From Candidatus Aldehydirespiratoraceae bacterium (GTDB taxonomy: Bacteria; Actinomycetota; Acidimicrobiia; Acidimicrobiales; Aldehydirespiratoraceae), in the NCBI GenBank assembly GCA_965261185.1, contig CBDHCN010000002.1, positions 2,623,602 through 2,687,601 of the forward strand: DNA of 64,000 bases. Reading direction: 5' to 3'. Below the pieces are notes generated by a model. That model searched no databases, was not told the origin of the DNA, and saw only the letters and a list, made by a program, of their open reading frames with translations. The translations under genes were made by a program, and so were the position numbers. This document shows, piece by piece, positions 42,404 through 49,916 of the stretch (position 1 is the first letter of the stretch; every line of letters begins with the position of its first letter).

Positions 42404-45139
42404 CTAGCAGCGGGGAATCGGGGCTAGGCGAGAATTGATGATCTCGTGGAGTTCGACGGCTGGGTCCTCGCCCGGCCAGTACTGTGAATCGCCGATGGCG
42501 AAGACACGGTGAGCTGGGCCGTCTTCAAAAGACCTGGCCGTACCAGCCACGATTCCGTCCACCACAATTGCGAAGGCGATCGACGCGCCCGGTGGGGCGT
42601 CGATGAACCCGAACACGTAGCCGATCGATCCGTCAGCGTCAGGAATCGTTGTTGGCCGTTCTTTGACCCAGCAGTGCGCGGAGTGGTTGGTCGCCCAATC
42701 CCGCGCCGGGGCGCCGATCAGATCGTGCGCTCCGCCGAGTCCGTAGAGACTTCCCGAGGTCCCGTCACCGAACACTTCGTGCATTTCGGCAGCCAACTCT
42801 TCGGTGATTGTCGTGAAGTCCTGCGGTACCTTCACCGAACCGCCAATCCCGTCAACAGCACGGTCTACCGCCGGTTGCGCGCTGAACATGTCGCGCCCAG
42901 CGAAATCCCATGGTGCATCAACCTTGAGCTGCGCGGCGATCGTGGGCACGATGTCGATCAACTGCACGGGCTGGGATTGAACAGTCCTGCTGGTTTGGTG
43001 GGGTTCTTTGAAAAGCAGCGGAACGCCTGCGATACCTCCCACGTTCATATCGCCTACTCCTCTCGATCGCTCACCAGCGACAAAGGAGACTCCGTGATCC
43101 GCGGTGACGATCACCATGGCGCGGTCAAAGTCTCCGATTGCTTCAAGGCGATCCAAATATTCCCCCAACAGATGGTCGGTGAACCCGAGTTGCAGAAGAT
43201 GGCGTTGTTGGCCGAACCTCGCCTTGACCTCGTCGTCGTCCCATTTCGAGAAGTACCCGGGGAGACCGATGTCGGCATAGCTCGAGCCGTCCGGTCTCAG
43301 CCGCCAAGGCACATGTGGCAACAGTGTGTGCATGTAGTGCAGGCGGGGGAGATCCCTCGGGTGGATCGCAGCAACCTCTCTTCGAAAATCGAAGACCCGT
43401 GTATCGAGGGAGATCAGGCTGTCTAGAAACGCAGCGCGTTCCTCGGCGATGCGCTCCGGGTCTACAGGATTGCCACCGACGTTGGTTTCGACCTGGGTGG
43501 CGATCTGCAGTGTGGTCGTTGATTGGCTTTGATCCAGCGGCGGCAGCGTCGCCGTCGTGGGTGAAGCCTGCGTGGTGGTTGTGCTGGCCGTGGTGGTTGT
43601 GCTGGCCGTGGTGGTTGTGCTGGCCGTGGTGGTTGTGCTGGCCGTGGTGGTTGTGCTGGCCGTGGTGGTTGTGGTTGTGAGTTCTCCGGCGGTGGTCGGA
43701 GTTGGGACGGTGGTGGTCAGCCCCCTTCCAAAATTGCCCCATCCGGCACCGATTGATGGAAGCCCCAGGTCCATCCCCTCTGGCGCCAGGAGATGGCCGA
43801 ACACGATTGCTGCGTCCTCAAACAGCAGAGCCAATGATCTCTTGTCGCTTGAATTTGACTCGTCGTTCCTCGGCGCAGGCAGGGGCGGGGTACTTGAAGT
43901 CGACAGACTCGTGGTGGTGGCAGATGAGATCGCCGATGAAGCGGCGACTGTGGTTGCGGGCGTGGTTGCGGGCGTGGTTGCGGGCGTGGCCGGTGCGGCG
44001 GTCGTGGTGGTGCTGTTGGTTGCCGGTGCGGCGGTCGTGGTGGTGCTGTTGGTTGCCGGTGCGGCGGTCGTGGTGGTGCTGTTGGTTGCCGGTGCGGTGT
44101 TGTCGGCTGCGATCAGATCCAGGACCTGCTCCGGCGTTGAGCCGTTGCACACTGAATCGGGGCATAGATCAACGAGAGGGTCCCAGGACGAGACGTCGTA
44201 CACCCCACCCAACAGGGTGAACAGGTTGTCGGGATACATCGAATAGACGGGAGCCGGCTGAGTCTGAAGCGTGCTCGCAAGCAAGGCCGGCACCGCCGCC
44301 TCGGTGGTGAAACCAACCGTGGTGGCGTTGTTGAAGACGTGTGAGGTCTCGGCTAGGCGAGCGAAATTGGGATAGCGGACTGGATCGATGCGACCGGTCT
44401 CGTCGAGTAGCGAGTGCCATGGCAACTCGTCGAACACCAGCAGGTAGATCGGCGGGAACCGCTCGTTCAATCGCTCGACCAGCGGAGCTTGCCCGGCGGT
44501 GCTCGGGCTGACCGCAGCATTGTCGGGATCGTCTCGATCAGCGCTGGTGTTGGTCGGCTGGGCCTCGTCGGATACAGCGCTATCCGGTTGGTCTTGATTA
44601 TCAACAATGCCGCCGAGGTCGTTCTCAGGGTCGGTCCCGAGCAGGGTTTCGAGTGCCACCGCCTCCACATCGTCGGGAAAAACAACGCTGGTGGCTGCTG
44701 AGAAGAACAAGAAATAGACGACAACGACAGGAGGTAGCACCGCCAACACCGACACGCCTGAACGAACCCGATCGTGCTTCACATAAAGGGTCATCAGGCC
44801 GATCGTGGTGGCGATGGCGATTGCTATGACGAGCCAAGCCAACCCACCGATCACATCCACCACCTGGATGACGAACAAGAAGGTCAGCGCCGCCATGGAG
44901 CCTCGGAAAAAGTGTTGCCCCAGCCGCTCCGAGCGAGCGTGTGCGGCGAGCATCACCGCGCTGAGCACAAACGCGGGTACTAGCGCGACCAAGATTGCGA
45001 ACGCCACGATCTGGCCCGGCGAACTCGAATGCGCAGTGAAGAAGGTTGGGTTCTCGCCCAGGATGCTCAGCAGCGGTTGGCCGATCGCCAAGGTGGCGAG
45101 CACCAGCAGATGAACGATTCGCCACAGCAGCGTCTTCAC
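42404..45139 (-). CDS. membrane-anchored sulfatase/alkaline-phosphatase-superfamily transferase (NoeB/LtaS-like), paralog A with Thr-rich repeats
   Basis: 5 N-terminal TM, 'LLVFDEL', 'PNFARLA', Thr nucleophile region 'NATTVGFTTEAAVP', 'H..LPHVPW', 'VTADHG', 'DIVPT'. Confidence 0.82.
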   Translation of the reverse strand: MKTLLWRIVHLLVLATLAIGQPLLSILGENPTFFTAHSSSPGQIVAFAILVALVPAFVLSAVMLAAHARSERLGQHFFRGSMAALTFLFVIQVVDVIGGLAWLVIAIAIATTIGLMTLYVKHDRVRSGVSVLAVLPPVVVVYFLFFSAATSVVFPDDVEAVALETLLGTDPENDLGGIVDNQDQPDSAVSDEAQPTNTSADRDDPDNAAVSPSTAGQAPLVERLNERFPPIYLLVFDELPWHSLLDETGRIDPVRYPNFARLAETSHVFNNATTVGFTTEAAVPALLASTLQTQPAPVYSMYPDNLFTLLGGVYDVSSWDPLVDLCPDSVCNGSTPEQVLDLIAADNTAPATNSTTTTAAPATNSTTTTAAPATNSTTTTAAPATPATTPATTPATTVAASSAISSATTTSLSTSSTPPLPAPRNDESNSSDKRSLALLFEDAAIVFGHLLAPEGMDLGLPSIGAGWGNFGRGLTTTVPTPTTAGELTTTTTTASTTTTASTTTTASTTTTASTTTTASTTTTQASPTTATLPPLDQSQSTTTLQIATQVETNVGGNPVDPERIAEERAAFLDSLISLDTRVFDFRREVAAIHPRDLPRLHYMHTLLPHVPWRLRPDGSSYADIGLPGYFSKWDDDEVKARFGQQRHLLQLGFTDHLLGEYLDRLEAIGDFDRAMVIVTADHGVSFVAGERSRGVGDMNVGGIAGVPLLFKEPHQTSRTVQSQPVQLIDIVPTIAAQLKVDAPWDFAGRDMFSAQPAVDRAVDGIGGSVKVPQDFTTITEELAAEMHEVFGDGTSGSLYGLGGAHDLIGAPARDWATNHSAHCWVKERPTTIPDADGSIGYVFGFIDAPPGASIAFAIVVDGIVAGTARSFEDGPAHRVFAIGDSQYWPGEDPAVELHEIINSRLAPIPRC
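43572..44096. repeat. Thr-rich coding microrepeats (18 bp x5; 12 bp x3; 33 bp x3)
   Basis: GTGGTGGTTGTGCTGGCC, GCGGGCGTGGTT and GCCGGTGCGGCGGTCGTGGTGGTGCTGTTGGTT units; absent or single-copy in paralog B. Confidence 0.85.
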
Positions 45140-45207
45140 ACGAGAAGTGTGACCCACGCGCGGCGCTACCGCACAGAAAACAGCGCCGTGGCCCGGTCAG
45201 TGAGCGA

Positions 45208-45861
45208 TCAATCCCATTGGGGGATGGCGTCGATGAACTCGAGCGCGGCGTCGATGAAACCGAATTGTTTGGGCAGTCCGAAGTGGTCGATGCCCGGGAT
45301 TATCTTGACGGTGGCGTTTGGCAGCGCATCGGCGAGCGGCTCGGGTGGCCCTGCGAAGTCCTCACTTCCGATAACGATCAAGCAAGGTGCCTGAACCTTC
45401 CCCAGTTGTTCAACAGTGAACGGCCGCCGCTCTCTTGCGAGGCAGGCTCGAAGAGCGTCGGAGTCGTTGCCCGGAGCGGTTATCAACGACTCGAATCGGG
45501 TTTCCACGTTGCCGTCCAAGTGCCGGCTGTCACCGAAATCGATTACGTTGCGCCCGATCGCGGCGAGGACCAACCGGTTCACGCGTTCTGGATACGACAT
45601 GGCGATACCGAGCGCCGTGTGGGCTCCGAGCGAGTATCCGATCACATCGGCCGGCGAGTCGGGGAACCGCTCCAACACGGGTGTCGCCAGGTCGTCGTAG
45701 GCCTCGGGTTCGGTGGGCTTCGGTGCCTCACCGTGGCCCAACAGGTCGATACCGATAGCACGCCGACGGGCGTCCTTGAGCATGTCGAACCACCCAGGTT
45801 CGCGCCAGGTCCGTTCCGTCGAAGTAGCGAACCCGTGAATCAGAACAACCGGCGGCGCCAT
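45208..45861 (-). CDS. alpha/beta fold hydrolase
   Basis: HGF, 'DLLGHG', GYSLG, G..D, 'IDH'. Confidence 0.88.
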   Translation of the reverse strand: MAPPVVLIHGFATSTERTWREPGWFDMLKDARRRAIGIDLLGHGEAPKPTEPEAYDDLATPVLERFPDSPADVIGYSLGAHTALGIAMSYPERVNRLVLAAIGRNVIDFGDSRHLDGNVETRFESLITAPGNDSDALRACLARERRPFTVEQLGKVQAPCLIVIGSEDFAGPPEPLADALPNATVKIIPGIDHFGLPKQFGFIDAALEFIDAIPQWD

Positions 45862-45913
45862 CAGCGCACCGTCCCCACGAACTCAGATCCCAAACCCCAC
45901 TTCTCGCGATTGA

Positions 45914-46606
45914 TCATTTCCGATACCTCTCCAACGTTGGTCGTGTGGCCAAGACGCTTGGGGTCCGGCTCGTGTCTTTGATCCAAGATCTGCTGTCGGC
46001 ACACATCCAACCGATGGTTTCTAACAAATATTCGTGTTCAAGGTTCAAGTCCCGACGGTGAATCGGCTCGTGATGTGCGATGCGGTTGCGCGTGAAGTGG
46101 AACTTCTGCATTCGGTTCTCGACCTCTCGTCGGATCTGGTAGGAGTTCCCGGTCTCCGGGTGCAGGGGGAAAGCAGACCTTATCGCTGGGACCCACAACG
46201 AGGTGAGGTATCTCTTATGGCACAGGTATCGCCAGAACCCGAGGTTCAACTCGGCGATGACCTTGCCATAGACCTAGGGGCGATGATGTCGGGTGGCCCG
46301 ATCGCGAGCCCTAGCGATGGCTTGGCTCATCGGTTCGTGTTGCTTGCCGCGAAACAGGTGGTGCTGCTGATACCAGGGGCCTTCCCAGCCACTGATCTCG
46401 CCGTGTTCGACGAGTGTGACCGCGACGATGTTCCGGAAAACCACCTCGAAACGACCGATGTCCTCATGCATGGCTGCGCCTGCTCGGATGTTCCAGTCGT
46501 AGAGGCCCAGCGCTTCTCGAAGATCTCCGCCGGTCTCCGAAAGGTACGAACTGAGTCGCTCTCGCGTGAGGCGTTGAGCAACTGTTTGGTTGTAGATGCT
46601 TGACAT
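45914..46606 (-). CDS. Abi-like (Abi_2/AbiD/F-related) HEPN protein interrupted by one in-frame TAG at 46274-46276
   Basis: 'RLSSY...ALGLYDWN...FEVVFRN', 'HHRP*VYGKVIAELNLGFWRYL', HEPN Rx4H 'RNRIAHHEPI'; both ORF halves are in the same frame. Confidence 0.8.
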
Positions 46607-46627
46607 TGCCTCCGCCGCCTGTAAGCT
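46600..46627 (+). promoter_or_regulatory. sigma70-type promoter overlapping the abi start codon, pointing away from abi
   Basis: TTGACA-16 nt-TAAGCT, 5 nt before conserved hairpin. Confidence 0.6.
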
Positions 46628-46632
46628 TGCTC

Positions 46633-46687
46633 GTGAAAGCCCCGGAACCGTCAATGCTTCGGCAAACGGCCGGGGTTACGTCTTTTT
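46633..46687 (+). ncRNA. candidate structured small RNA, copy 1
   Basis: AGCCCCGG/CCGGGGTT, CCGT/ACGG, TGC-TTCG-GCA (cUUCGg tetraloop), U-tract; near-identical copy at 49780. Confidence 0.6.
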
Positions 46688-46724
46688 CTGACTTGCCTCC
46701 CCGAGCAGACTCACATCTTATCCC

Positions 46725-46994
46725 ATGTCATCTGACAACAACTCCAGAAGTCTCGGTCCTGCAGGCGAGACTAAACTAAAGTTCGTTTTGGAGTCAGCGT
46801 TCGGATGGGGACCGGTTCCGAATGAGAAACATGACAGCGGCACCGATTTCTTTGTCCAGGCCAGGGATCCAGACCTGTTTGATGGCCAGGCTGTTTTGGG
46901 AGTACAGGTCAAGACAGGGGCTTCCTATTTCCGGTCGCCTTTGAAGGAGATGACGAAGCCGATTACTCGATTCGTTGGATCTGTGCTGGCTTGA
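46725..46994 (+). pseudogene. truncated DUF4365-like PD-(D/E)XK domain
   Basis: 'G.AGE...GW...HDSGTDFFV...LGVQVKTGASYF', ends abruptly at a duplicated segment. Confidence 0.6.
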
Positions 46995-47184
46995 CCAAGC
47001 GGTCGCCAAATATCGGTTCAGACTCAACGCAACATCATCAAGAGCGACGACAGCGTTTCGTTGCGTCAGGCGAGGCCATACCCGTCAGTGTTAGGGCCGT
47101 CGCTTCGTAGCCCCCCCAGTGCAGTGGGGGTTGGCGCTGTCGTTTACCCCATAACGGAGCTACCAACCTCGTCGTCCATTACAA

Positions 47185-49677
47185 CTAGCAGTGTGGAATC
47201 GGGGCTAGGCGGGAATTGATGATCTCGTGGAGTTCGACGGCTGGGTCCTCGCCCTGCCAGTACTGCGAATCGCCGATGGCGAAGACACGGTGAGCTGGGC
47301 CGTCTTCAAAAGACCGGGCCGTACCAGCCACGATACCGTCCACCACAATTGCGAAGGGGATTGACGCGCCCGGTGGGGCGTCGATGAGCCCGAACACGTA
47401 GCCGATCGACCCGTCAGGTTCGGGAATTGTTGTTGGCCGGCTCTGGACCAAACAGTGCGCGGATTGGTTGGTCGCCCGATCCCGCGCCGGAGTACCGATC
47501 AGATCGTGCGCGCCGCCGAGTCCGTAGAGGCTTCCCGAGGTTCCGTCGCCGAACACTCCGTGCATTTCGGCAGCCAACTCTTCGGTGATCGTTGTGAAGT
47601 CCTCCGGCACCTGCACCCAAACGAGAGAACCCCCAATTCGAACAGCCCGGTCTACCGCGGGTTGAGCGCGCAACATGTCGCGTCCAGCGAGGTCCCACGG
47701 TACATCGACCCCGAGCAGCGCGGCGATCGTGGGCACGATGTCGATCAACTGCACGGGCTGGGATTGAACAGTCCCGCTGGTTTGGTGGGGTTCTTTGAAC
47801 AGCAGCGGAACGCCCGCGATACCCGCGACGTTCTGAGTGTCTCCCCTCGAGTGCTCACCAGCGACGAAGGTGATCCCGTGATCCGCCGTGACGATCACCA
47901 TGGCGCGGTCAAAATCTCCTATCTCTTCAAGGCGATCCATATATTCCCCCAGCAGATGGTCGGTCAAGCCGAGTTGCAGAAGGTGACGTTGTTGCCCGAA
48001 CCTCGCCTTGATCTCGTCGTCGTCCCATTTCGTCGTGTACCCGGGGATACCGATTACGGGATAGATCGATCCGTCCGGTCTCAGCTTCCAAGGCGTGTGC
48101 GGAAAAAATGTGTGCATGTAGTGCAGGCGGGGGAGATCCCTCGGGTGTATCGCAACAACGTCTCTTCGAAAATCGAAGAGACGTTTGTCTGCGAAGATCG
48201 GGCTGTCTGGAATTCGTTCGTCGGCAATGCGCTCCGGGTCTACCGGATCGGTGCCAACGATGGATTCCACTTCGGCGATCTGCAGCGTGGTCGTTGGTTG
48301 GCTTTGATCCAACGGCGGCGGAGCGGCCGTCGTGGGTGAAGCCTGCGTGGTGGTTGTGCTGGCCGTGGTGGTTGTGGTCAGCCCCCTTCCAAAATTGCCC
48401 CATCCGGCAACGATCGATGGAAGCCCGAGGTCCATCCCCTCTGGCGCCACGAGATGCCCGAACACGATTGCTGCGTCCTCAAACAGCAGAGCCAATGATC
48501 CCTTGTCGCTTGAATATGTCTCGTCGTTCCTCAGCGCAGGCACGGGCGCGGTACTTGAAGTCGACAGACCCGCAGTGGTTGTAGAAGAGATCGTTGGCGA
48601 AGCTGCGACTGTGGATCCGGGCGCGGCCGGTGCCGTGTTGTCGGCCGCGATCAGATCAAGGACTTGCTCCGGCGTTGAGCCGTTGCACACTGAATCGGGG
48701 CATAGATCAACGAGAGGGTCCCAGGACGAGACGTCGTACGTCCCACCCAACAGGGTGAACAGGTTATCGGGATACATCGAATAGACGGGAGCCGAATGAC
48801 TCTCAAGCGAGCTCGCAAGCATGGCCGTCACCGACACTTCAGTTGTGGAACCGTTCGTGGTGGCGTTGTTGAAGACGTGTGCGGTCTCGGCTAGGCGAGC
48901 GAAATTGGGATAGCGGACTGGGTCGATGCGACCGGTCTCGTCGAGTAGTGAATACCATGGCAACTCATCGAACAACAGTAGATAGATCGGCGGAAACCGC
49001 TCGTTCAATCGCTCGACCAGAGAAGCTTGCCCGGCGGTGCTCGGGCTGACCGCAGCATTGTCGGGGTCGTCTCGGTCAGCTCTGGTGTTGGTCGGCTGGG
49101 CCTCGTCGGATACAGCGCTATCCGGTTGGTCTTGATTATCAACAATGCCGCCGAGATCTTCCTCAAGGTCGGTCCCGAGCAGGGTTTCGAGTGTCACCGC
49201 CTCGACATGGTCCGGGAAGACGACGCTGTTGGCTGCTGAGAAGAACAGGAAATAGACGACAACGAAAGGTGGCAGCACTACCAACACCGACACGACTGAA
49301 CGAACCCGGTCATGCCTCAGATACAGCATCATCAGGCCGTACGTGGCGGCGATGGCGATCGCTGTGACGAGCCAAGCCAACCCACCGATCACATCCACCA
49401 CCTGGATGACGAACAAGAAGGTCAGCACCGCCATGGAGCCCCTGAAGATGTGTTGCCCCAGCCGATCCGAGTGAGCGTGTGCGGCGAGCATCACCACGCT
49501 GAGCACAAACGCGGGTGCTAGCGCGACCAAGATTGCGAACGCAATGATCTGGCCCGGTGAACTCGAATGCGCAGTGAAGAAGGTTGGGTTCTCGCCCAGG
49601 ATGCTCAGCAGCGGTTGGCCGATCGCCAAGGTGGCGAGCACCAGCAGATGAACGATTCGCCACAGCAGCTTCTGCAC
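47185..49677 (-). CDS. membrane-anchored sulfatase-superfamily transferase (NoeB/LtaS-like), paralog B
   Basis: collinear, highly similar to 42404-45139; same catalytic motifs. Confidence 0.82.
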   Translation of the reverse strand: MQKLLWRIVHLLVLATLAIGQPLLSILGENPTFFTAHSSSPGQIIAFAILVALAPAFVLSVVMLAAHAHSDRLGQHIFRGSMAVLTFLFVIQVVDVIGGLAWLVTAIAIAATYGLMMLYLRHDRVRSVVSVLVVLPPFVVVYFLFFSAANSVVFPDHVEAVTLETLLGTDLEEDLGGIVDNQDQPDSAVSDEAQPTNTRADRDDPDNAAVSPSTAGQASLVERLNERFPPIYLLLFDELPWYSLLDETGRIDPVRYPNFARLAETAHVFNNATTNGSTTEVSVTAMLASSLESHSAPVYSMYPDNLFTLLGGTYDVSSWDPLVDLCPDSVCNGSTPEQVLDLIAADNTAPAAPGSTVAASPTISSTTTAGLSTSSTAPVPALRNDETYSSDKGSLALLFEDAAIVFGHLVAPEGMDLGLPSIVAGWGNFGRGLTTTTTASTTTTQASPTTAAPPPLDQSQPTTTLQIAEVESIVGTDPVDPERIADERIPDSPIFADKRLFDFRRDVVAIHPRDLPRLHYMHTFFPHTPWKLRPDGSIYPVIGIPGYTTKWDDDEIKARFGQQRHLLQLGLTDHLLGEYMDRLEEIGDFDRAMVIVTADHGITFVAGEHSRGDTQNVAGIAGVPLLFKEPHQTSGTVQSQPVQLIDIVPTIAALLGVDVPWDLAGRDMLRAQPAVDRAVRIGGSLVWVQVPEDFTTITEELAAEMHGVFGDGTSGSLYGLGGAHDLIGTPARDRATNQSAHCLVQSRPTTIPEPDGSIGYVFGLIDAPPGASIPFAIVVDGIVAGTARSFEDGPAHRVFAIGDSQYWQGEDPAVELHEIINSRLAPIPHC

Positions 49678-49746
49678 ACGAGCAGGATAAGCCACACACG
49701 GCGCCGAACTGTTTGGGAGTTCGGACATTTGGTCGGTGGTTGATGC

Positions 49747-49774
49747 TTGACTCGGGTTCCGGAGACGCTATGGT
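49747..49774 (+). promoter_or_regulatory. sigma70-type promoter of hairpin copy 2
   Basis: TTGACT-16 nt-TATGGT, again 5 nt before GTGAAAGCCCC; spacer sequence differs from copy 1. Confidence 0.55.
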
Positions 49775-49779
49775 CACTG

Positions 49780-49832
49780 GTGAAAGCCCCGGAACCGTCA
49801 ATGCCTCGGCAAACGGCCGGGGTTTCGTCTTT
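49780..49832 (+). ncRNA. candidate structured small RNA, copy 2 (no adjacent abi gene)
   Basis: GTGAAAGCCCCGGAACCGTCAATGCCTCGGCAAACGGCCGGGGTTTCGTCTTT; differs from copy 1 in the loop and 3' tail. Confidence 0.55.
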
Positions 49833-49916
49833 GTTGAGTGCGAGGTTGAGTTGGCGGTGGTGCTTGCTCTGGTGTTGCTGTTAGGGTTCGGGAACCACTA
49901 CGGGGGTGACACCAAG

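Follow-up and report, generated by a model that had tools for sequence, protein, structure and literature searches.

A self-promoted structured RNA head-to-head with AbiF-like HEPN genes: a candidate RNA-antitoxin module whose toxin gene is interrupted in an Aldehydirespiratoraceae genome

A small structured RNA preceded by its own promoter boxes lies head-to-head with a broken abortive-infection (abi) gene in the genome of a Candidatus Aldehydirespiratoraceae bacterium, and its linkage to relatives of this gene, its fold, its strand and its promoter are conserved in other bacteria. We read the pair, with a probability of about 60%, as an AbiF-like RNA-antitoxin module with a new, inverted and self-promoted RNA, the toxin of which is dead in this genome. 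This layout, a divergent RNA head-to-head with Abi, is not described for the AbiD/AbiF family in the literature that we searched, where no divergent RNA partner of Abi_2 genes was found; the primary AbiF paper (Cell 2025) lay outside this search and a prior description is possible. The locus is part of a stretch of 64,000 nucleotides, hereafter the window, for which an initial annotation from the letters alone had proposed an Abi toxin gene paired with a small RNA. The pairing was borne out, but the toxin gene proved to be a nonsense pseudogene, and about half of the hairpin copies in the bacterial family are orphans or extra tandem copies.

The abi gene (45914-46606, minus strand, 230 codons plus stop) encodes an Abi_2 or AbiD-AbiF-like HEPN protein according to its translation, Pfam, PADLOC and its orthologs. 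With an X in place of the internal stop, the protein reached 22.7 bits (E 1.4e-4) against Pfam Abi_2 (PF07751), for which the cut-off is 25.6, and it matched the PADLOC model PD-T4-5 at 2.1e-10. A precomputed PF07751 match exists for a 99%-identical cluster (P0001) and several homologs and is absent from most of the 120 listed; altogether 371 homologs were found at E <= 1e-5, mostly without a name. The Rx4H HEPN motif that had been read from the translation is present as RNRIAHH at 46070-46090 on the minus strand (residues 173-179), in agreement with the Rx4-6H catalytic motif of HEPN proteins, and R173, N174, R175, A177 and H178 are invariant in the alignments A3 (15) and A4 (42 homologs).

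An in-frame TAG (46274-46276, minus strand) cuts the protein after residue 109, upstream of this motif, and an N-terminal fragment made from the gene would thus be devoid of the catalytic site. Aligned orthologs have glutamate at this position: those in the congeneric genomes G017 and G012, 96-97% identical and uninterrupted, carry GAG, which makes the abi gene of the window a nonsense pseudogene. Only these two close orthologs are intact, while the rest contain stops or frameshifts or are fragments. The TAG site was variant-free in contigs of runs from two studies, although the assembly may stem from one of these runs. The contigs, of unrecorded kind and from four runs in all, contain the DNA together with its TAG, and the hairpin is a repeat in them. 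A read-through role of in-frame TAGs, which occur in two of three paralogs, was considered and dropped, as their positions differ and the orthologs have GAG. With its nonsense codon the toxin is dead in this genome and the RNA gene persists in two copies; a broken toxin gene next to a retained RNA is a frequent pattern among the relatives.

The putative promoter of the RNA is on the opposite strand. Its -35 box TTGACA (46600-46605, plus strand) overlaps the abi start codon (46606-46604, minus strand) and is followed after a spacer of 16 nt by the -10 box TAAGCT (46622-46627, plus strand), recognised by the conservation of TANNNT and located 5 nt before the RNA start. Both boxes, as initially annotated, are present in the sequence and are conserved among the copies, but the sigma-70 promoter scan did not call the promoter of copy 1, because TAAGCT matches TATAAT at 3 of 6 positions only. 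The RNA itself (46633-46689, plus strand) scored 85.9 bits with R1, a covariance model built from 15 hairpin copies. Its fold, found from about 46633, agrees with the proposed plus-strand RNA of about 55 nt with three stacked stems, a cUUCGg loop and a U-tract: P1 (46638-46645/46670-46677), P2 (46648-46651/46666-46669) and P3 (46655-46657/46662-46664) are stacked within 46638-46677 and capped by a C(UUCG)G loop; the tail that follows is U-rich (UUACGUCUUUUU). The minimum free energy was -24.5 kcal/mol on the plus strand (z -2.04, 7 of 200 shuffles as stable) and -21.7 kcal/mol on the minus strand of the same stretch (z -1.53). The hairpin is also listed as terminator-like by the promoter scan. 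On their own, hairpin and promoter are only marginally beyond chance, and it is the comparative data across relatives that make them significant.

A search of Rfam including the abiF motif, as suggested in the initial annotation, gave no match to RF03085 on either strand, neither at E <= 10 in positions 45000-48000 of the window, where the sole match in E-value mode was a chance lncRNA (E 8.2), nor at E <= 1 in 19 related loci, which yielded only tRNAs and sub-threshold chance matches. The analogy to AbiFr, the RNA partner of AbiF, therefore rests on the protein and not on the RNA. For abi itself, no promoter was obtained from the scan of the window and no conserved one across the compared loci. 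Downstream of the RNA lies the remnant of a DUF4365 gene (46725-46994, plus strand, 89 codons, Pfam DUF4365 27.9 bits), and in G001 and G011 the hairpin is followed, at a distance of 36 nt, by full-length DUF4365 frames of 499-500 aa. It is probably a former neighbour in the same island rather than a demonstrated member of the module.

Two copies of the hairpin exist in the whole genome according to blastn and the covariance model, both of them in the window. Copy 2 (49747-49836, plus strand, R1 84.7 bits) is an orphan that adjoins the start of a gene for an 847-aa membrane protein and has no abi gene, although about 20 nt resembling the first abi codons are left. It consists of a -35 box (49747-49752), a -10 box (49769-49774) and the RNA (49780-49836), and its promoter, TTGACT-16-TATGGT, was called by the scan. 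The two copies are identical at 44 of 45 positions of the RNA body versus 7 of 16 in the promoter spacer and 15 of 68 in the downstream flank, hence conservation is confined to the RNA and the promoter boxes.

A blastn search located the hairpin region in 13 of 41 related genomes, and R1 matches occurred in 51 of 107 genomes of the bacterial family at E <= 0.01, with a best E <= 3.1e-15 in 33 of the 51; weak matches that were inspected (L099-L101) are plain GC hairpins. Of the 61 hairpins examined at family level, 26 are immediate neighbours of an opposite-strand Abi_2 frame under a strict criterion, 3-4 more adjoin one where a stop-free frame crosses the hairpin, four are a second or third copy one step farther from the Abi_2 gene, and 31 have no adjacent abi gene by the strict count. 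Hairpins stand head-to-head with the abi orthologs and with a 52%-identical fragment, and likewise with a homolog of 46% identity whose genomic surroundings differ and whose hairpin is 95% identical over 56 nt. Orphans adjoin unrelated genes, one of them beside a transposase-like gene (judged by eye) and one beside a tRNA-like stretch, and those found at the window locus in relatives are derived by deletion of abi or of abi plus a hydrolase gene. In G081, 19 R1 matches are clustered, and abi-hairpin units and extra hairpins with promoters of their own succeed one another there 170-850 bp apart. Judged by sequence conservation, the orphan RNA copies are under selection, and as about half of the family hairpins lack abi, the RNA may have a role of its own.

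Such multi-copy clusters in some relatives would also be expected of a repeat, a terminator or the end of a mobile element (REP or attC-like) without any RNA function, and the terminator-like listing in the scan and the assemblies of runs X2-X4, which break at the hairpin, point in the same direction. On the other hand, this genome has no more than two copies, each with its own promoter boxes, compensatory changes maintain an RNA fold with strand-specific G-U pairs, and no gene converges on the hairpin from the left. Moreover, the element is situated at the 5' end of abi and linked to Abi_2, unlike REPs or terminators at the 3' ends of genes. We regard this explanation as barely plausible, and the genome-wide REP or terminator that the initial annotation had named as the outcome speaking against its proposal was not found.

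The fold is supported by covariation, another check proposed at the outset. In a broad alignment fitted with R1, double-sided changes were seen at 11 of 15 pairs, amounting to 90 double-change cells compared to 30.3 +/- 8.3 in shuffles (0 of 500 reaching 90) and at most 13 when the partners were slid. As this alignment is fitted to the model, a second one was produced with MAFFT and RNAalifold from 36 copies, and it recovered the same P1-P2-P3 fold with compensatory changes at 8 of 14 pairs; the covariation alignments are fitted to, or seeded by, the R1 model. The P2 pairs of these 36 copies illustrate the exchanges, with CG 15/GC 13 at one pair, GC 22/AU 9/GU 4 at another and CG 19/UA 17 at a third. 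Divergent copies were needed, as the first alignment of 15 close hairpin copies contained no double-sided covariation. Nearly invariant are P1 (CCCCGG/CCGGGG), the internal loop CYCU and the A-rich 3' side, all kept across proteins of 30-60% identity, while P3 is variable in length and loop.

The initial preference for the plus strand was likewise corroborated. Among 43 distinct family-level copies, 37 G-U pairs stand against 0 A-C pairs. The broad set contains 53 versus 13, but interior pairs alone give 14 versus 12, and the strand signal of this set thus rests mainly on terminal pairs, promoter and energies. The plus-strand fold is the more stable one in 27 of 43 family and 40 of 50 broad copies, numbers that overstate the case as the sequences are related. 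Of 66 distinct family copies, 58 have a TANNNT box that ends 0-8 nt upstream of model position 1 (exactly 5 nt in 44), compared to 2 of 65 in the control on the other strand, and in the broad set it is found in 46 of 51 copies at a fixed distance of 4-6 nt before the RNA start. Of the 58 family-level copies with a -10 box, 40 also possess a -35 box with at least 4 of 6 matches. Further, a full promoter-like site (-35 with at least 4 of 6 matches plus -10) 4-6 nt before the RNA was found in 27 of 47 copies, whereas the abi-sense side has 2 scattered promoter-like sites within 150 nt among 47 loci. In most modules the abi start codon lies inside the -35 box of the RNA, and the conserved Met-Ser codons (ATGTC) with which the protein starts may account for part of the conservation of this box; that of the -10 box is not explained in this way.

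These data bear directly on the idea that the functional RNA is the complement, i.e. a structured element in the leader of the abi mRNA as in AbiF/RCd22, with an incidental promoter on the plus strand. A same-strand arrangement is known for AbiF, the minus strand also folds (at the -21.7 kcal/mol given above), and TTGACA partly reflects the conserved start of the protein. Nonetheless, the ratio of G-U to A-C pairs in the family set and the energies favour the opposite strand, coding cannot account for a -10 box at a fixed distance, and an abi-sense promoter-like site was confined to 2 of 47 loci, so we consider a sense leader very improbable.

Linkage of RNA and gene extends far beyond the family. 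Scanning one genome per species gave 528 relatives of the protein, and the best 80 of these 528 loci, at 30-89% identity, were tested. They belong to Acidimicrobiia, Frankia, Rhodococcus, Gordonia, Pseudonocardia, Kribbella and Solirubrobacterales as well as to Alpha- and Gammaproteobacteria, Bryobacterales, Rhodothermales and others. R1 matched 47 of these best 80 loci at E <= 5.4e-4, in all 47 cases on the strand opposite to abi, the 5' end of the RNA preceding the extrapolated first residue by 19-98 nt (median 38). No R1 match at this threshold was present in 33 of the 80, and a dozen further loci have weaker matches at the same place. The hairpin is thus conserved upstream of homologs, as the initial annotation had anticipated, and together with the covariation this amounts to a conserved structured ncRNA linked to the toxin gene, a trait of type III systems. 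The description as an actinobacterial module was too narrow, given the occurrence in Proteobacteria and other groups and the relatives on plasmids. The latter appear on 417 plasmid records, annotated as "Abi family protein" or hypothetical. Out of three annotated records that were checked, the Nocardia farcinica plasmid pNF2 carries the hairpin 24 nt before a "hypothetical protein" gene (R1 E 2.5e-7), and the Micromonospora and Zymomonas plasmids had no R1 match at the expected place. In viral contigs, a scan for the hairpin core gave 0 matches with an exact pattern, which misses variants.

The conserved orphans might also suggest a small RNA or leader unrelated to Abi, for instance one regulating downstream genes, beside which abi genes tend to insert. 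At the locus described here, the hairpin indeed also precedes a small ORF plus a methyltransferase-like gene, or a DUF4365 gene. Yet no common gene was found downstream among the 61 copies, nor to the left of orphans, and Abi_2 is the sole recurrent neighbour; its distance and orientation are fixed, in different phyla as well as on the Nocardia plasmid. An RNA without relation to Abi therefore seems improbable to us.

The protein side of the module was approached with an AlphaFold2 model of the 97%-identical intact ortholog, made from a 42-sequence alignment (pLDDT 90.9). Its best solved match is 8vz6_A, the PbAbiF dimer bound to its ncRNA (Foldseek E 0.029, probability 1.00, TM 0.58). VIA-align superposed 206 residues with this structure at an rmsd of 3.2 A and Z 12.3, a value near which scores can arise by chance among helical folds, and the second-best match had Z 6.4. 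The protein shares 12% of its sequence with 8vz6, and searching the PDB sequences with a profile made from A3 returned no relative (best E 0.52, unrelated). In the model, the abi protein is AbiF-like in fold. The AbiF-type link drawn in the initial annotation thus holds for the protein fold, and it does not extend to the RNA, which is not the Rfam abiF motif.

Taken together, the module would be a decayed two-gene toxin/RNA-antitoxin (abortive-infection) pair of the AbiD/AbiF kind. The intact protein would be a HEPN RNase, and its partner would be the three-stem RNA of about 55 nt, transcribed on the opposite strand under a sigma-70-type promoter of its own. We infer transcription, RNA-protein binding, toxicity and defence: in analogy to AbiF-AbiFr, the RNA would bind the Abi protein and block its RNase activity, and infection or loss of the RNA would release the nuclease. 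The head-to-head overlap makes the RNA complementary to any 5' leader of the toxin, and with the abi start codon in the -35 box, any such leader must overlap the RNA promoter or the RNA gene. Antisense pairing or transcriptional interference may thus add to the control of the toxin.

This raises the question whether control might be purely antisense and type I-like, the RNA pairing with the abi leader or the promoters colliding so that the toxin stays untranslated, with no protein binding at all. In most modules the position of the start codon indeed makes leader overlap unavoidable. An antisense RNA, however, needs no conserved sequence, being complementary by construction, and it is at odds with such a role that P1, the CYCU loop and the 3' side stay nearly invariant among modules whose proteins are 30-60% identical. 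Orphan and tandem copies with own promoters have no target leader beside them, an abi-sense promoter beyond the hairpin was not found, and the toxin is by its modelled fold an AbiF-like RNA-binding protein. Likewise, it is a soluble helical HEPN protein of 230 aa and not the small hydrophobic peptide of type I systems. A purely antisense mechanism is in our view unlikely, and sequestration of the protein by the RNA, as in AbiF-AbiFr, remains the preferred reading.

A bolder version of the RNA-antitoxin module can be formulated, which we put forward tentatively as a doubtful but real possibility. Here, a widespread and uncatalogued RNA family would provide a large clade of AbiD/F-like HEPN proteins with an antitoxin that acts in trans and has its own promoter, type III sequestration and type I antisense would be combined in a single 55-nt RNA, and orphan and tandem copies would serve on their own as immunity genes, disarming Abi toxins that are incoming or paralogous. 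If this is true, it would describe an AbiF relative whose RNA partner has turned into an independent gene, with a bearing on the diversification of HEPN-RNA pairs and ultimately of Cas13-crRNA. For the genome at hand, the finding is a modest one: a dead toxin and a surviving RNA.

The characterisation of RNA-neutralised AbiF toxins is recent, and Cas13 has been proposed to descend from them. To our knowledge, RF03085, located on the strand of the toxin, is the one catalogued partner RNA of AbiF. Here, a different conserved and covarying RNA with its own promoter and in inverted orientation accompanies another large Abi_2 clade that spans Actinomycetota, Proteobacteria and other groups and reaches the plasmid records mentioned above. 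If this RNA is an antitoxin, it would be a second kind of RNA partner for one protein fold, explain the carriage of genes frequently annotated as "hypothetical" or "Abi family", and provide a marker for annotating such modules. It would also offer a small system of one protein and one RNA in which the contributions of type I and type III control could be teased apart by experiment.

Among known systems, type I loci such as hok/sok have a comparable geometry, where a short, constitutively promoted RNA is encoded opposite the 5' region of the toxin and the transcripts overlap. The RNA described here likewise lies opposite the toxin 5' region, and the ATG in the -35 box would imply an overlap with the toxin transcript, for which neither a start nor a promoter was found. 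The toxins of type I loci, however, are small peptides of the membrane whose antisense RNAs are not known to keep their sequence between distant homologs, whereas the present module pairs a putative 230-aa RNase with an RNA conserved in both sequence and fold. In ToxIN and AbiQ the RNAs, ToxI and antiQ, consist of short repeats in tandem that precede the toxin gene on its own strand and are processed by the toxin, which is not known to have a HEPN fold. What these systems would share with the present module is an RNase protein toxin neutralised by RNA and a role in abortive infection (PMC5772629).

The nearest relatives are the AbiF systems themselves. AbiF is described as a type III toxin-antitoxin system in which an ncRNA encoded in cis, AbiFr, attaches to each monomer and occludes the HEPN site by means of the bulged nucleotides C32 and U38 (PMC12737573). 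In Clostridioides difficile, the RNA RCd22 contains two RF03085 motifs. [quoted passage not shown] For the wider group, it is stated that in lactococcal AbiD/F the upstream DNA is conserved more than the genes (PMC13064643) and that AbiD/F co-occur with RF03085 (PMC12165695). Tight linkage of gene and RNA, and an RNA conserved more than the protein, are features that our module has in common with the known AbiF systems. With AbiF_Cd-RCd22 of the phi027 prophage it shares an Abi_2 protein with an adjacent RNA, here the presumed controlling element, a SigA-type promoter and a terminator-like 3' end, but RCd22 measures about 100-130 nt, has two abiF motifs and lies upstream on the same strand, whereas the RNA found here is about 55 nt long, forms one hairpin and is divergent (bioRxiv 10.1101/2025.04.15.648962). 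An ncRNA upstream on the strand of the toxin and co-transcribed with it is thus not the arrangement seen here, where promoter, G-U pairs and energies indicate the opposite strand. Like PbAbiF with AbiFr (8vz6), the module combines a small Rx4H HEPN protein of the Abi_2 kind with a conserved structured ncRNA beside its gene, and conserved single-stranded C/U residues in an internal loop of the RNA are another likeness to AbiFr with its bulged nucleotides (PMC12737573). It differs from AbiF-AbiFr in the low protein identity to 8vz6, in an RNA that is not RF03085, in the placement of this RNA on the opposite strand, where its own promoter overlaps the start codon of the toxin, and in the existence of orphan and tandem copies.

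The abi-RNA island lies between two genes for large membrane proteins, tandem paralogues of 917 aa (42404-45157, minus strand) and 847 aa (47185-49728, minus strand), both of which contain long Thr/Ala/Pro-rich low-complexity repeats that differ in length between them. The second copy of the hairpin RNA is located immediately upstream of the 847-aa gene, an arrangement which indicates that the region was duplicated locally and abi was then deleted. On the plus strand, 3' of the RNA, a DUF4365 remnant of 89 codons is present (46725-46994). Two congeners (L017 in G011 and L018 in G001) encode a full-length DUF4365 protein of 499-500 aa, starting 36 nt past the hairpin. The ancestral island may thus have carried DUF4365 as another defence gene, possibly one sharing the promoter of the RNA. 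For abi itself, no sigma-70-like promoter was found in the window (46606-46760, minus strand) or at 47 related loci, and Shine-Dalgarno-like stretches were either only 0-5 nt from the ATG or missing.

In the samples of runs X1-X4, the hairpin element is a multi-context repeat, since several contigs match the window at the hairpin alone (46635-46688, 2-5 differences) and contigs of the window locus in X2-X4 stop or begin within it (46664 and 46653). Hairpin clusters of up to five copies within 7 kb were also found in two genomes, G081 (L085-L090) and G080 (L091-L092), where extra hairpins 170-230 bp apart, each with its own -10 box (TANNNT), alternate with abi-hairpin units and many of the hairpins are followed by a conserved stretch of ~25 nt. 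At L104/L096 (G144) and L109 (2239-2295), an intact abi gene is followed, just beyond its 3' end, by a second copy on the abi strand, so that these genes have a hairpin at both ends.

A second Abi_2 clade (30-36% identity; L010, G000:C2:3651314-3651895; L011, G000:C2:3001396-3001986; and L045-L052) had no matches to R1, the covariance model of the hairpin. In its members, a conserved hairpin of another kind, whose long stem is nearly perfect, lies 45-95 nt 5' of the ATG; the one G-U change in this hairpin appears to point to the abi strand. Like the window gene, L011 carries an in-frame TAG, but not at the same position.

Two tRNA genes at L137 and three at L152 are situated 300-500 nt or nearer to abi-hairpin modules, a proximity that fits insertion at tRNA-linked hotspots.
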